A stretch of 61,719 nt of DNA, counting the filler, from Anaerolineae bacterium (lineage in GTDB: Bacteria > Chloroflexota > Anaerolineae > Epilineales > Epilineaceae): assembly GCA_029262755.1 (NCBI GenBank). It is 4 parts of 4 records of this genome, joined end to end, with 100 filler letters (N's around TTAATTAATTAA, not from the genome) between each part and the next. Parts side by side here need not be neighbours in the genome. Positions count along the whole stretch, not along the records: positions 50,052 to 61,719 come from JAJCYU010000121.1; 3 more parts are not named here. One strand, 5' to 3'. Positions within the stretch are counted from its first letter, which is position 1. Every line of letters starts with the position of its first letter. Shown one piece after another: positions 53,401-61,719 of the stretch. Position numbers: made by a program.

Positions 53401-56400
53401 CACAGCGGCCGGGGAAGGCCGGAGGGCGTATAGAAGAAGTTGAAGTTGGTGCTGGCATCGCGGTTGATCGCCGTCGACACCCAGCCACCGGTGTAGTAGT
53501 TGAAGAGGCACTCGCTCGGCTCGGACTGCTGCCAGATCGGCGCAGCCTCGGCCGACGTCTTGTAGTCCGGGCGCACCGTGAAGCCGATCTGCTGCAGCTG
53601 GTTGGCGAAGTAATCACCGATCTGCTGCCGCTCGTCCTCGACACGGATGATGCCGATGATCTCGACCGGCTCGCCGTTGTACATCCACGCGCCGTCGACG
53701 CGCTCGGCACCGAGCGCCTCCATCTCCTCCGTGACAACCTCGTCCGCACGTTCCATATCGTGGCCGTACTTGGCCTCGATCGCGCGAATCTCCGCGGCGA
53801 GCGCGCCGCGGTCCGCCGACGCACCGTTGATCGGCACGAAGCGCGGGGTACCCAGACCACCCATGATCTCCGCGATGATGTACTCGCGGTCGACCAGCCA
53901 GTTCATGGCTTCACGGATACGCGGCACGGCAAAGGGGTTGATCTTGCCTTCGTCCGCGCACTGTCCCGGGTTGAAGGTCAGCTCCGTGTAGGAGCCATAG
54001 GACGTCTTGTAGTCAATGCCGGCGGTATCGAGGATCTTGGCGTAGGTCTGCGGCGACGAGATCGTGAAGGCGTAGACGTCGATGTCGCCCGCCTCCAGCC
54101 GCGTCACGGCCTTGTCCGCATCCGGCTCCTCGACGACGACCAGCTCGTCGATCCATGCACCGGTCCGATCCGTGGTCGGCTCGTCCGGCTCCGTGTTTGC
54201 ATCCGCGTCTGCATCCGCATCCGCATCGGCATCGGCGTCGGCATCCGCGTCGACATCGACGTCCGGATCCACCGCACCTTCATCGCCCACGGGGGGCGTG
54301 TCCACATCGGGCGTGTCACCTCGGTCGCACGCGACCACCGAGACACTCAGCATCAGCATCATCATGAGCACCAGCAGCTTATTCATTCTCATTCCTTTCT
54401 CTCTCCTCCCATCGTTCCGCCGCCGCGGAATCGGGCACCGAATGTTCTGTCCCTACGGGCATACAGCATGCTGCAACCAGGGGACGATATCGTGAGCCGC
54501 GACTTCGGGCCAATCGGCCGTCTCCACGGGGGGGGTCACGGCCACGACGTCGGTGCGAACATTGTGGGTTTCCCTCGTGTGAGAACAGGACGGGTTCGGG
54601 CGGATTTCGGTTCAATCGCCATCACCGCTGGACAGCAATACGCGCCGGAGCTACGCCGCCACCTCATTTGGCCGCAACCAATCCATACCCTGGTGCGTCG
54701 TCCCCTATGTATGGGAGCGAAAACCCCTGCTCCCCTTGGAACTTGGAGGATAGCGATGCACGAGATGATGCCGATCACCGCGCTGCGACAGACCGATTCC
54801 CGCGCACCCGTGCGCCGAGAGTTTGGCCTGCCCGCCCTTTTGATCTTGCTTGGCATGCTCTTGGCGTATAGCGGCGGTCTGGTCCGCGCCCACGGTGAGG
54901 CCCCCGGCACCTATACGCCGGTTTCGAGCCACGTCACGACAGCCGCACCGGGCGGACTCACGCACTAAGCGCGGGCTGATTCCGCTCGCGCTGATCGACG
55001 CGTGAGGGCTGCCCGCCCGCGAGCGAGCGAGTTGCCCCTACGGCACCTGGTCGTCCGTGCCCGCGAGCTGTCGCAGGATCTCCATCTGCCCGACGTGATA
55101 GGTCTCGTGCCACGCGAGGCCCGCCAGCTGTTCGGCAAGGCTGCGCCCGCGCTCCTCGTCCACGATCGACGCCAGTTGCTCGTCGCTCGCCGCAGCGAGT
55201 GCGTCCTCGAGCGCTTGCTGCGCCGCATCCCAGTCCGCGCGCAGCTGCGTGAAGCTGCGCACACCGTCTTGATCGGCCGCCGTGATCGGCGCGCTGCCCG
55301 TGGCGTAGGGCTCTCGCTCCCCTTCGGACCACGGGTGCTCCGCGCCGAGCAGCCCGAGCATGTAGCCGCGGTGGTGGACGAGGTGGCCGACCGTCCAGTT
55401 CAGGCAGTTTCCCCGGAAGGGCAGCTGCAACAGGCTGTCCTCGTCGCTGAGGTCCTTCCACAACATTCCCGTGAGGAAGTTGTTGCTACGCAGGGTGTTT
55501 GTGATCTGCCGGCCGTCGATAGGCATGTTCGCCGCGCCTCCCCGGGATCCGAATCGCAGTGGGTCCCGAGTTATGACGCGCCGGCAGCGCTGCGGCAAGC
55601 GATCGCGAAGCGAACGACCACCGTGGTCAGGCGCGTACGACCACCGTGCTCAGCGAGCCGCGAACCCGTCCTCGTCGCGCCGGATCGCGAACTCGGTAGC
55701 CTCCGCGGAGAGCAGCACACCCGGCACGCCCGCGCCCGGATGCGTGCTCGCCCCCACGAAGTAGAGCCCGCGCACGTCTTCGCTGGCATTGTGCGGCCGG
55801 AACCACGCCGTCTGGCTCAGCTTGGGCTCGATGCCGAAGGCATTGCCGACGTAGGCGTTTAGCCGCCCTCGGAAATCGTCCGGCGTAAAGACTTCCACGA
55901 CATCGAGGTTGGCGCGCAGGTCCTCGAGCCCCCAGCCCTCTAGGAAGTCGATGATGCGATCGGTGAAGGGCTCCTTCATCGCCGACCAGTCGATGTCCGC
56001 GCGCAGGTTCGGCACGGGCACCAGCACGTACATGCTCTCGCCGCCCGGCGGCGCCATGCCGGGATCGGTCCGCGTGGGTGCATGGAGGTACAGGCTGAAG
56101 TCGTCGGCCAGGATCTTCGCATCGAAGATGTCGGCCAGCAGCGCCTTGTAGCGCTTGGACAGGATCAGCGTGTGGTGCAGCAGCTTCGGATACTGCCGGC
56201 GGCTACCGAGATAGAGTAGGAAGCAGCTCATCGTGTAGTCGAGCGCCTCTACCTTGCGGTCGGTCCACTTGCTGCGGTGCTGCGGCGCGATCAGCTCGGC
56301 GTAGGTGTGCCCCACGTCGCCGTTGCTGACCACAATATCGGCAGGGACGAACACGTCGTCTACCCGAACGCCGATCGCGGCACCGTCCTCGACCACGATC

Positions 56401-59400: not shown

Positions 59401-61719
59401 CATGCTGTCGATAGTAACACAGTTTTCGATCAAACACAATGGTTTGATCGTTTTTGTAATCCGTTGCCCAATCTAGATTCTGAATAATCGCTCGCAGTCC
59501 GGCCGTTTGAAAGAATATCGTCGCCTACTGCTTGTCATGACGCGTCGCCCAACCCTGCCCTCCCCAGAGCGCGGCCGCGAGCACCACCGGCGCCCACTGC
59601 CCCAACAGCGCGTTGATCAACCCCCAGAAGACCAGGAACGCGCGCAGCGTGTCCCACATCCAGGGTGCTTGGCGTAGCCGGCGCGACCACGCCGCCCGAT
59701 CCGCGCCCCACGACATGACCGCCATCGCGATCCCGCCGCTGAGCATCCAGCCCACGAAGTTCTGCAACGGGACGCCGTAGTAGCGACCTGGCTCGTCCCA
59801 GCCCCAGAAGCCGAGCCCGACCGCGCCGGGATCCAACACGCCGTCGAGCAGCACGAGCGCAAGCACGGCGCGCAGCCATATCGTGATTCGCGAAACGTCC
59901 GGGCGGGCGGACGCAAGTGCCAAGAGCGATGCGTTGAGCACCATCGGCACCCAGAAGAGCGGCAGCGGAAGCGGCACCCGGCCAAAGAGCAGGGGCTCGA
60001 GGCCCAACGCGTACGAGAAGCGCCCGTAGGGCACACCCGTCTCTACCCCGACGCCCTCGATGACGTAGCTGAACAGGGCGACGCTCGCGAGCGCGATGAT
60101 CCCGCGCCGTCCCAGCACAGGCCACAGACCGGCGGCCAGCGGTAGCGCCATCGCCAGGTTGGCGGCCACCAGCAGCAACGGCGACCGCAAGGCCGTCTCC
60201 AACGCCGGCAGCTCTACGTAGCGCTGCACGGCGAAACCGACGGCCCCAACGAACGGCACGAACAGCGCGATCGTCCCCCGATTCCCGGATAGCCACCGCT
60301 CGACGGCGTTCATCTCGTCAGGCGCCACAGCCCGGCGAGCGTCAGGCTCATGCCCACGACCGTATTGAGCGCGGGGAACCACCAGTAGGCGCGCTCGACA
60401 TCGAGTCGCAGCCCGACGATCGCGCCGACAAAGACCGGATAGAGCCCCAGTACGGGCACGAAGGCCCACGATAGGCTGCCGAAGGCCGCGGCCGCCGCCA
60501 GCCAGCAGGCGCTGCAATAGGCGTACGCGCCGCGCGTCCCGAGCACCGTGGCCGTCGTCCGCACGCCCGCCGCCCGGTCCGGCGCGATGTCGGGGATCGC
60601 CGAAAACGTATGCATCGCCATCGTCCACAGCCAGCCGCCGAGGATCGCAGCCGTGGGCGGTGGCTCGCCGGCCAGCAGCGTATATGCGGCCACGCCGGGC
60701 AGGATGTAGAGCCCGTTGGAGAGCGAGTCGAGCAGCGGCCGCACCTTGAAACGCAGCGGCGGCGCGCTATAGAAGACGGCCAAGAAGAAGAAGCCGAGCA
60801 TCCATACGCGCGTTCCAGGAGGGAGCCAGGCCGTCAGCAGCGCGCCGAGCAACGCGCTTCCCCCGATGGCCGCCCAGACCAGGGCACCTCCCGCGAAGCG
60901 AGCCTCGCGGCCCTCCTTCTTTGGGTTCGCGGCGTCCATCTCCCGGTCGAAGCGATCGTTGACACCGTAGATCAGGACGTTGGCCGGCAGCAGCGCGTAG
61001 GCGAACAGAGCGAGCAACTGCGGCCTCCAGAGATCCGCGACGCTCTGCGCGCCAAAGGCCGCGCCTACCAGCACGGGTCCCGCTACGTAGAGCCAAAAGC
61101 GCGGCCGCGACAGCACGAGCAGGTAGCGCAGCACGCCGGTTTCGTCGCGCGCGCCGCGCTCCGTGCGCGCGTCGTCCACGTTGTGTGAGCCCCCCTCGTC
61201 GCCGCCGCCCGCGCGCGATCCCGCGCTCATCGACCGTGATCCTCGAGGACCGCGCGCGCCGTATGTTCGCCGCTGATCAGGCACATCGGCACCCCGATAC
61301 CGGGCGTGGTGTACGCGCCGGTGAAGTACAGCCCGGCCATGCGCTTGGAGCGCCGCCGCGGCCGAGCGAAGGCGCTCTGCGTCAACGTATGCGCCAGCCC
61401 GAGCGCCGAGCCTTCCGCCGCGTGATAGCGCGCCGCGAAGTCCGACACGCTGAAGGCGCGCTCAAACACGATGCGCTCACGCAGGTCCTCGCCGGTATGA
61501 CGCGCGACGTCCTCCAGGATCCGATCGCGATAGGCCCTGCGCGTCGCCTCCCCATCTTCCAGCCCCGCGGCGATCGGCACGAGCACGAAGAGGTTGCTGT
61601 GCCCGGGCGGCGCCACGGTGTCGTCGGTCTTAGAGGGTACGCAGAGGTAGTATGCCGGATCATCCGGCCACGCGGGCCGGCTGAAAAGGGTGTCGAAGTG
61701 CGGCTCCCAGTCGTTCGGC

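Follow-up and report, generated by a model that had tools for sequence, protein, structure and literature searches.

Haloarcula japonica is known to make bacterioruberin from lycopene by a three-enzyme route (Yang 2015, cited in PMC9258230), and its genes crtD (c0507), lyeJ (c0506) and cruF (c0505) lie side by side; PMC11946383 describes the crtD orthologue c0507 as bifunctional. Bacterioruberin genes are already known from bacteria, and two reports place all three in Arthrobacter and Patescibacteria (PMC9122864, PMC9948471). In the pink Arthrobacter agilis and A. bussei (Actinomycetota), PMC9122864 documents the pigment together with a cluster of lye, crtD and cruF, in the order Lye-CrtD-CruF, and bacterial crtB and crtI; identities to the archaeal enzymes are 36-37% for Lye, 27-29% for CrtD and 42-44% for CruF. 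One Arthrobacter locus on a plasmid record that we examined reads crtB, a crtI-like gene and, further on, a lye-like gene, without cruF. Bacterial carotenoid loci can also carry adenosylcobalamin photoreceptors of the CarH/LitR kind (PMC11796333), which repress carotenoid genes and are described from Thermus, Myxococcus, Bacillus and Streptomyces.

Here, we describe a filamentous Chloroflexota bacterium of the Epilineaceae that carries predicted genes for a red C50 pigment characteristic of halophilic archaea, beside a predicted B12-based light switch. The window, the whole stretch of 61,719 nucleotides that was analysed, consists of four contigs joined by runs of N, of which C121 (JAJCYU010000121.1) occupies positions 50052-61719. 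The minus strand of C121 holds, at 55650-61718, a carotenoid locus of two translationally coupled blocks separated by a 121-bp putative promoter region (59404..59524). The first block comprises the 3' part of crtD (61227..61718; 163 codons and a stop, running off the contig end; 234 bits to positions 325-478 of the CrtID model NF058655), lye (60310..61230), encoding a 306-aa UbiA prenyltransferase of the lycopene elongase/1,2-hydratase type (PF01040; NF009516, 403 bits against a cut-off of 205), and cruF (59525..60313), encoding a 262-aa carotenoid biosynthesis membrane protein of the bisanhydrobacterioruberin hydratase type (PF04240, 178 bits). The second consists of a gene for a 328-aa regulator with MerR/HTH_17 and B12-binding domains (58417..59403; PF12728, PF00376, PF02310), the phytoene synthase gene crtB (57194..58420; PF00494, 206 bits over residues 108-366 of a 412-aa frame), and the GTG-initiated crtI (55650..57185), encoding a 511-aa phytoene desaturase (TIGR02734, 547 bits, cut-off 238). 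Four-base overlaps join starts to stops within the blocks: the ATG of lye overlaps the crtD stop and that of cruF the lye stop (both ATGA), while the crtB ATG at 58420 overlaps the regulator stop and would give CrtB an N-terminal extension of about 100 residues, the other possible start being an ATG at 58159. The GTG of crtI lies 8 nt after the crtB stop. Directly downstream of crtI, on the same strand, a DinB_2 family gene (55038..55598; PF12867, 45.7 bits) is of uncertain membership in the unit, and a second DinB_2 gene (53.7 bits) directly precedes crtD on contig C401, its stop overlapping the crtD GTG. The gene identities and order given in the survey's finding are confirmed.

The survey had also divided crtD between two contigs with an 82-bp overlap. 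The 5' part lies outside the window on the minus strand of C401 (positions 1-1245; NF058655 positions 1-351, 506 bits), and C401:1-82 and the end of the window are 94% identical. All five mismatches are synonymous, so that both versions encode the same 27 residues; across the whole genome, the crtI-family model finds complementary halves on C401 (positions 1-352) and C121 (329-496), and a 151-nt unitig of run X1 spans the window end and has the variant letters. These observations support the junction only indirectly, and its overlap is 94% and not 100% identical. An intact crtD orthologue in a related genome, G011, scores 699 bits on NF058655 (cut-off 640).

Within the family, the same six-gene order recurs in two other genomes (G011 and G012), in which the proteins are 69-80% (CrtD), 66-67% (Lye), 50-53% (CruF), 44-47% (regulator), 58% (CrtB) and 72-75% (CrtI) identical to those of the window. 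In Ca. Epilinea brevis (G009), the locus is present in two pieces, crtD-lye and cruF-regulator-crtB-crtI, on one 674-kb contig; taking all three relatives together, CrtB is 56-58% and CrtI 72-75% identical to the window proteins. As the survey had counted, 7 of 16 other Epilineaceae carry Lye-like genes (three at 65-67% and four at 43-49% identity), and none over the cut-off was found in 18 genomes of the other families of the order. The window's type of Lye, which we call type A, is present in 4 of 17 Epilineaceae genomes. A second cluster type (type B) is found in four other Epilineaceae (G008, G014, G015 and G016), and clusters in its order, crtD-crtB-lye-cruF, also occur in methanogens. 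Type-B and methanogen clusters contain the same three families and pass both NF009516 and NF058655; type B, from the same bacterial family as the window, is 42-47% (Lye) and 44-58% (CrtD) identical to it.

The three families and their adjacent order are those of Haloarcula japonica, and Halobacterium salinarum has lye as well. By tblastn, 518 relatives were confirmed among 600 matched stretches; of the 80 kept, 77 were haloarchaeal and 3 from Chloroflexota, and 73 of the 77 haloarchaeal loci have adjacent crtD-lye-cruF. Identity of the window proteins to their haloarchaeal counterparts, at 52-63% for Lye and 51-72% for CrtD, far exceeds that reported between Arthrobacter and archaea, but falls to 36-47% for CruF and 25-31% for CrtB. 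The locus further differs from the haloarchaeal ones in its bacterial host, in having a B12 regulator and crtI embedded, and in its co-oriented crtB of another lineage; in 51 of the 57 haloarchaeal loci that include crtB, this gene is on the opposite strand. Moreover, type-A proteins lack an acidic make-up (their CrtD has a pI of 6.2-6.3, while the median for 72 haloarchaeal CrtD is 4.44). The term 'haloarchaeal-type', which the survey applied to the whole cluster, fits crtD and lye only: crtB, crtI and the regulator are bacterial, and cruF falls into a three-way split, whereas gene identities, order, regulator signatures, the CrtD-Lye clade and the patchy distribution all stand. Among the best 120 Lye matches (57-68% identical), every one named to an organism is haloarchaeal except one Chloroflexi MAG, repeating the earlier result. 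That no other bacterium has such genes is true of the top-ranking matches alone; beyond them are the type-B Epilineaceae, Lye relatives (this one protein only) in Armatimonadota and Woesebacteria MAGs, Arthrobacter and Patescibacteria.

Phylogenetic analysis, carried out without Arthrobacter sequences, places type A as sister to all sampled Halobacteria, and not nested among them. In the Lye tree, type A and Halobacteria are sister groups, with SH-aLRT values of 86-89 and 91-95 respectively and 99 for the joint clade, and in the CrtD tree, rooted on CrtI, the two join at 98. A careful search on the concatenate (38 rows by 1046 columns) recovers Halobacteria at 100/99, type A at 99/96, and a 100/100 split of both from type B and the methanogens; the two sister groups have short stems (0.21 and 0.29). 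CrtD and Lye thus form a well-supported exclusive clade with Halobacteria, and among known bacterial genes, the window's crtD and lye are those most closely related to the archaeal ones. One old inter-domain transfer joins type A and Halobacteria, its age following from the sister position and the non-acidic proteins, which also exclude a recent transfer from a haloarchaeon. The transfer between Halobacteria and a few Epilineaceae proposed in the survey accordingly holds for crtD-lye; for CruF, the window group, type B and the haloarchaeal proteins form a three-way split within a joint clade (SH-aLRT 99), apart from 19 other Chloroflexota CruF-like proteins.

On the direction of this transfer, a stem-lineage haloarchaeon may have given crtD-lye, perhaps with cruF, to an ancestor of some Epilineaceae, to be set beside a resident bacterial regulator-crtB-crtI block that possibly included cruF, a route to which we would give somewhat less than an even chance. 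It is favored by the near-universal presence of the genes in Halobacteria (PMC9258230 gives CruF for 97% of genomes, and haloarchaea make up most of the tblastn relatives kept), by their patchiness in bacteria, by the separation of crtD-lye from the other four genes in Ca. Epilinea brevis, by the bacterial nature of crtB and crtI, and by the second, different cluster type within the same family. However, type A is neither nested nor acidic, and the lineages beside the joint clade are bacterial where named (Woesebacteria, Armatimonadota), so that this route also requires an earlier transfer into archaea. In the opposite course, the ancestor of Halobacteria would have acquired crtD-lye, and perhaps cruF, from a Chloroflexota lineage resembling the Epilineaceae, or from a relative of it. 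This is favored by the short-stemmed sister position, the neighbors that are bacterial where named, and the non-acidic proteins. In addition, the RpoB proteins of type-A genomes have diverged deeply (75-77% identity), which would fit an old bacterial clade, and an established proposal holds that Halobacteria received bacterial genes on a large scale at their origin. Against it are the very narrow bacterial distribution, the absence of the genes from the genera nearest the window genome in the RpoB tree (g2, 0 of 4; g9, 0 of 1), the small share of outgroup proteins that carry an organism name, and the presence of a related cluster in a group of archaea, the methanogens. We regard this course as tentative and on the unlikely side.

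Taking the evidence together, we assign a probability of roughly 0.65 to the reading that the locus directs light-induced synthesis of an acyclic bacterioruberin-type C50 carotenoid, its crtD-lye clade being shared with Halobacteria through one old transfer. The regulator-crtB-crtI block would lead from geranylgeranyl diphosphate to lycopene, and the crtD-lye-cruF block, possibly with the upstream DinB_2 gene, from lycopene to the C50 product: Lye would extend both ends of lycopene by a C5 unit and water, CrtD would put in the 3,4 double bonds, and CruF would hydrate the added C5 units. The genome encodes two polyprenyl synthases; at 84% completeness, neither a PF05834 lycopene cyclase nor a further CrtI-family gene over the cut-off was found in it. 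Across 14 aligned sequences, Lye residues N91, D92, D95, D99, D214 and D218 are invariant. Confidence is lowest for the final hydrations, because CruF scores under both NCBIfam equivalog cut-offs (NF041333, 236.7 against 300; TIGR03460, 146.5 against 154.7). CruF-family matches are present in 98 of 400 other Chloroflexota at E <= 1e-8, where the survey had reported none, yet none is close, with identities of 28-41% and scores of no more than 72.6 bits.

It is possible, though we consider it unlikely, that CruF specificity or other enzymes yield a different end product, such as bisanhydrobacterioruberin, monoanhydrobacterioruberin, a C45 intermediate or a C50 carotenoid with additional modifications (e.g. 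glycosylation). Of the three proteins, CruF diverges most, and it lacks a specific join to the haloarchaeal clade, and the genome is incomplete. Nevertheless, cruF is translationally coupled to lye and kept in five type-A genomes (G000, G009, G010, G011 and G012), its product shares a clade with haloarchaeal CruF to the exclusion of the 19 other Chloroflexota CruF-like proteins, and an Arthrobacter CruF 42-44% identical to the archaeal enzyme accompanies bacterioruberin production (PMC9122864).

Our results also bear on how a bacterioruberin-type pathway might be controlled. The MerR/B12-binding, CarH/LitR-like protein recognized in the survey has all four adenosylcobalamin photoreceptor signatures defined in PMC11796333, with GxxW, EH, GxxH and GxxxP invariant in five orthologues, and shares with CarH/LitR and CtMerR an N-terminal HTH, a helical bundle with Wx9EH and a Rossmann B12 domain with a His ligand. 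Its best solved relative is CtMerR (PDB 8JBS, E 1.5e-18 over residues 22-290; CarH 5c8a, 9e-10), an adenosylcobalamin tetramer that monomerises in light (PMC11796333), and its DNA-binding domain is closer to CtMerR/HTH_17 than to classical CarH. We therefore predict a CtMerR/CarH/LitR-like adenosylcobalamin photoreceptor. That it senses cobalamin supply or redox state instead is improbable: light-independent regulators also have B12-binding domains, and the protein reaches only 47 bits on the CarH equivalog model (cut-off 400), but both the light response of CtMerR and the placement beside crtB within a carotenoid locus, as in known CarH/LitR systems (PMC11796333), argue for a photoreceptor.

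The putative regulator promoter, with TTGTGT at -35 (59439..59434), a 17-nt spacer, TACTAT at -10 (59416..59411) and 7 nt to the ATG at 59403, predicts a leaderless mRNA. A perfect 9-bp inverted repeat (59427-59450) across the -35 element is a candidate operator, in contrast to the direct repeats bound by Thermus CarH. Upstream of the regulator in five genomes, the spacing of -35, -10 and ATG and the half-sites CGnTCAA and TTGAnCG are kept, and a relaxed palindrome pattern occurs four times in the 5.06-Mb genome. In the dark, the regulator would sit as a tetramer on this palindrome across its own -35 and keep at least regulator-crtB-crtI repressed until freed by green or blue light, so we propose that pigment synthesis is light-induced. 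A search of the sequence preceding crtD and the C401 DinB_2 gene turned up no copy of the palindrome, which means that the sequence gives no sign of light control over crtD-lye-cruF.

Finally, mis-binning or contamination, which would make the Chloroflexota host an artefact, is hardly credible: although C121 is just 11.7 kb long, the MAG consists of 428 contigs and its flanking ABC-transporter and DinB genes lack counterparts beside the relatives' clusters, the six-gene order in G011 and G012 and its split version in Ca. Epilinea brevis speak against it, all six genes have their nearest relatives in same-family genomes, where the contigs concerned measure 674 kb (Ca. Epilinea brevis), 296 kb and 57 kb, and the cluster GC of 64-70% matches neighboring contigs of the window.

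We show that contig C121 (50052-61719; the window consists of four contigs with runs of N between them) carries a carotenoid gene cluster with a B12 regulator, as the survey had claimed and as family scores, gene order and signature residues confirm. Judged by its sequence, the locus adds a new phylum to those with a bacterioruberin-type cluster, here combined with a CarH-like switch. The genes lie on the minus strand and are ordered, in the direction of transcription, as the 3' part of crtD, lye, cruF, a 121-bp gap, the regulator, crtB, crtI and a DinB_2 gene. The crtD part (61718..61227), open at the contig end, scores 234 bits at positions 325-478 of NF058655 (cut-off 640). 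It is followed by lye (61230..60310), with 403 bits on NF009516 (cut-off 205) and 91 bits on PF01040, and by cruF (60313..59525), with 178 bits on the Caroten_synth model PF04240 (cut-off 25) at model positions 3-205 of 209. Beyond the gap come the regulator (59403..58417), which combines HTH (PF12728/PF00376) and B12-binding (PF02310) domains, crtB, read from 58420 or 58159 to 57194 (PF00494, 206 bits, cut-off 26), and crtI (57185..55650; TIGR02734, 547 bits, cut-off 238), with the DinB_2 gene (55598..55038) downstream of it. Because start codons overlap the preceding stops (the ATG of lye with the crtD stop, that of cruF with the lye stop as ATGA, and one crtB ATG with the regulator stop), the genes fall into two translationally coupled blocks. 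Reading crtB from the regulator-coupled ATG (58420) gives an Ala/Pro/Arg-rich N-terminal extension of about 100 residues ahead of the SQS_PSY domain (window 57194-58432), and alignment with its relatives begins only at residue ~98. Elsewhere on C121 are ABC peptide-type transporter genes (SBP_bac_5, BPD_transp_1, OppC_N). Long family-less open frames run antisense to real genes, as at 52233-54968 on the plus strand, where 911 aa lie opposite the SBP_bac_5 gene; these frames are shadows typical of DNA with 65-70% GC.

The 5' part of crtD lies on C401, a separate contig of the same genome, where positions 1-1245 (minus strand) score 506 bits at NF058655 positions 1-351. Neither half alone spans the model, and the intact orthologue of a relative in the family (G011) reaches 699 bits against the cut-off of 640. 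CrtD has its N-terminal FAD/NAD Rossmann domain (PF13450, 64 bits) in the C401 part, spanning residues 48-112. C401:1-82 is 94% identical to the window end, and the five differences in this overlap are all synonymous, with the same 27 residues encoded by both versions. In the best DNA run (X1), the main contig ends 32 nt short of the window end, and a 151-nt unitig with five other letters extends past it. C121 and C401 are likely continuous, the assembly having probably broken at a bubble between strain variants. Across the whole genome, only crtI and the two complementary crtD halves score over or near the cut-off of the crtI-family model. Two polyprenyl synthases are also encoded in the genome (84% complete), in which no lycopene cyclase of family PF05834 was found. 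On C401 the end of a DinB_2 gene overlaps the crtD GTG by four bases, a further translational coupling, and a divergent CotH-family gene lies beyond. The carotenoid locus thus has a DinB_2 family gene on either side (window 55038-55598 and C401 1245-2087, locus L180). No RNA was among the listed sequencing runs that match the locus.

UbiA enzymes carry two Asp-rich motifs, NDxxDxxxD and DxxxD. Both are kept in Lye, with N91, D92, D95, D99, D214 and D218 invariant in a 14-sequence alignment, and it branches next to haloarchaeal Lye as a sister group (joint support 99), which marks it as an orthologue of the characterised haloarchaeal enzymes. The best 120 Lye matches among 5.8 billion proteins are 57-68% identical and, where named, all haloarchaeal apart from one Chloroflexi MAG, in line with the survey. 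After clustering at 50%, one representative reaches 336 bits (59% identity) and the next 223 bits (46%), and 246 representatives have E <= 1e-30; nearest in the Protein Atlas are two archaeal clusters and one Actinomycetota cluster. In Haloarcula japonica, a three-enzyme route from lycopene to bacterioruberin has been established (Yang 2015, as cited in PMC9258230), and the crtD orthologue of this species is, according to PMC11946383, also a phytoene desaturase. In contrast to the window's proteins, the enzymes of bacterioruberin-making Arthrobacter species are, according to PMC9122864, far less similar to the archaeal ones. On the strength of the H. japonica route, this comparison and the Asp-rich motifs of Lye, we predict a C50 carotenoid of the bacterioruberin series as the product. 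Least certain in the predicted pathway are the CruF steps. CruF falls below both NCBIfam equivalog cut-offs (NF041333, 236.7 against 300 bits; TIGR03460, 146.5 against 154.7 bits), and its reported absence from 400 other Chloroflexota genomes could not be reproduced: 98 of the 400 hold a CruF-family match at E <= 1e-8, all of them distant (28-41% identity, at most 72.6 bits).

Within its 340-aa frame, the regulator has its PF12728/PF00376 domain at residues 35-80 and PF02310 at 208-305. The nearest solved structure is that of CtMerR (8jbs; E 1.5e-18, nearly full length), those of CarH coming next at ~1e-9; the protein scores 47 bits on the CarH equivalog NF052513, under the cut-off of 400, and is closer to CtMerR. 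Light-responsive AdoCbl photoreceptors bear the signature GxxW, EH, GxxH and GxxxP (PMC11796333). All four elements are invariant in the five Epilineaceae orthologues (residues G148, W151, E161, H162, G204, H207, G229 and P233) and line up with CarH and 8jbs, and the regulator is predicted to be an AdoCbl photoreceptor repressor of the CarH/LitR/CtMerR type. Upstream of it, a -35/-10 pair is common to the five genomes (window 59404-59450; loci L012, L013, L136 and L138 in the relatives). Since the -10 ends 6-7 nt before the regulator ATG, a leaderless mRNA is predicted. Inverted half-sites span the -35 in all five genomes and form a perfect 9-bp palindrome in the window (59427-59450). This operator pattern was not found upstream of crtD or DinB_2 on C401, so light control is indicated for the regulator, crtB and crtI only; through the supply of lycopene, such control would still gate the whole pathway.

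Among the best 80 Lye loci in species-representative genomes, 77 are haloarchaeal and three come from Chloroflexota, all in the window's own family: Ca. Epilinea brevis (G009), a 'Caldilineae bacterium' (G011) and an 'Anaerolineales bacterium' (G012), as their titles read. In the latter two, the six genes of the window recur in unchanged order (contigs of 296 kb and 57 kb). Ca. Epilinea brevis carries crtD-lye at ~180 kb and cruF-regulator-crtB-crtI at ~436 kb of one 674-kb contig, and a further relative (G010) has cruF-regulator-crtB on a short contig, with no Lye found. Given that the cluster genes recur on contigs of relatives in the same family, mis-binning is very unlikely. A Lye passing NF009516 occurs in 7 of 16 other family genomes, three of the window-like type (type A, 65-67% identity) and four of a second type (type B, 43-49%), and in none of 18 genomes from other families of the order, the same counts that the survey had given. 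Type B loci are ordered crtD-crtB-lye-cruF (L014-L017, in genomes G016, G008, G014 and G015), and each of the eight genomes with Lye holds one type only, none having both.

Two Lye trees (LG+C20; 105 and 101 rows) pair type A (SH-aLRT 86-89) with Halobacteria (91-95) as sister groups, in a joint clade (99) on a long stem of 0.33-0.54; type B falls elsewhere, with proteins of two Armatimonadota MAGs, and a Woesebacteria protein is among the neighbours. A cluster look-up named the organism for 1 of 10 outgroup representatives. The CrtD tree, rooted on CrtI, unites type A with Halobacteria at 98 and places type B and an Arthrobacter CrtI-like protein outside, haloarchaeal monophyly receiving only 77. 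For CruF, type A (96), type B (94) and Halobacteria (97) form a three-way split without internal resolution, inside an enclosing clade with SH-aLRT 99. With the three proteins concatenated (38 rows, 1046 columns), a careful search recovered Halobacteria at 100/99, type A including the window at 99/96, type B at 100/99 and a methanogen group at 100/100, and separated type A plus Halobacteria from type B plus methanogens at 100/100. For speed, the trees were limited to between 18 and 35 haloarchaeal loci out of 77; seven loci with a stop within the tblastn segment were left out of the Lye set, as were L019, L036 and L047, duplicates of the G009, G011 and G012 loci. Apart from CrtD and Lye of type A, which sit at its base, every sequence found in the clade that they share with Halobacteria is haloarchaeal. 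The survey's description of the cluster as haloarchaeal in type therefore stands for CrtD and Lye, which share a clade with Halobacteria, and does not extend to CruF, with its three-way split, or to the bacterial crtB and crtI.

The protein P0122 was rejected as the nearest Lye outgroup. Its relatives include Haloarcula, Halorientalis and Natronolimnohabitans, and the group is of no use for rooting because mixture-model trees place it inside Halobacteria as a long branch; a search with P0122 of 301 genomes of the haloarchaeal phylum returned nothing above 49% identity. P0122, P0251, P0284-P0288 and P0290 make up a Lye subgroup that evolves fast, shares 45-56% identity with canonical Lye and includes proteins of Haloarcula sp. 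S1CR25-12 and Natronolimnohabitans. This subgroup may represent either a paralogue or a lineage that has diverged. Six small-genome archaea considered as Hikarchaeia candidates turned out to have ordinary acidic haloarchaeal clusters, and the one Arthrobacter locus that a plasmid search turned up lacks cruF and sits on a very long branch.

As to the direction of transfer, two readings stand close together, and neither is more likely than not. Archaea may have passed crtD-lye to bacteria (a probability of about 0.4): nearly all Halobacteria have the genes, their bacterial range is very narrow, crtD-lye is unlinked from the other genes in Ca. Epilinea brevis, and crtB and crtI are bacterial. The opposite course, in which bacteria passed crtD-lye, possibly with cruF, to archaea, is given a slightly lower probability; in its favour are the basal place of type A, its neighbours, which are bacterial wherever an organism name is given, and its non-acidic proteins. 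Type A is not nested within the sampled crown Halobacteria, and the pI of its CrtD is 6.2-6.3, whereas 72 haloarchaeal CrtD have a median of 4.44; the corresponding values are ~10 against 5.1 for CruF and 9.4-9.6 against 5.3 for Lye. It is a tentative suggestion that, of all living bacteria, the type A Epilineaceae carry the genes most closely related to those of the donor from which the ancestor of Halobacteria received crtD-lye(-cruF); if true, the signature red pigment pathway of haloarchaea came from a Chloroflexota-like bacterium. In 'CrtIb', the desaturase subfamily of CrtD, lateral transfer is described as pervasive by PMC9907078, with Bacteroidetes, Actinobacteria, Thermoplasmatota and Halobacteria taking part.

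Between type A genomes, Lye is 66% and CrtD 65-80% identical, similar to the bacterial crtI (72-75%) and to RpoB (75-77%), a divergence that fits a long history of vertical inheritance for the locus as a whole. In an RpoB tree built from BLAST-checked frames, in which the fragments of two genomes (G006 and G015) are unreliable, G012 groups with G009 and G010 (87/93), and the window genome groups with the genera g9 and g2 (94/99). Haloarchaeal-type genes occur in 0 of 1 g9 and 0 of 4 g2 genomes. Since these RpoB neighbours are without the genes, the family must have seen either losses or additional transfers among its members.

In the titles, abstracts and some passages of the literature mentioning both, we found no link between bacterioruberin and Chloroflexota. 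The passages of PMC9907078 on Chloroflexi hold only general remarks on carotenoid pathways, and the words 'carotenoid' and 'pigment' are absent from the paper describing Ca. Epilinea. If the pigment proves real, Chloroflexota would be added to the range of bacterioruberin-type C50 carotenoids. The hosts, Ca. Epilinea and its relatives, grow as short filaments in activated sludge and biofilms, and pigment synthesis would be controlled by a B12 photoreceptor of the CtMerR kind, which has been described only recently. The basal position of CrtD and Lye next to all Halobacteria also offers a testable handle on where and when Halobacteria acquired their hallmark pigment pathway.

Methanogen-type loci (L169-L179), ordered crtD-crtB-lye-cruF or cruF-crtD-crtB-lye, were present in 11 of 301 genomes sampled from a haloarchaeon's phylum (G619, G700, G583, G532, G650, G482, G675, G524, G494, G705 and G437). 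Their proteins are 36-43% (Lye) and 40-53% (CrtD) identical to those of the window, and their gene order is that of the Epilineaceae type B. McrA is encoded in 5 of 5 genomes tested from this set, which identifies the hosts as methanogens with a C50-carotenoid-like gene set; passages of PMC9907078 mention a few Methanomicrobia desaturase sequences. Finally, contigs from runs labelled as marine metagenomes (X2 and X5) cover parts of lye and crtD (window 60500-61719). Their differences from the window lie mostly three bases apart, which suggests related organisms in another habitat.
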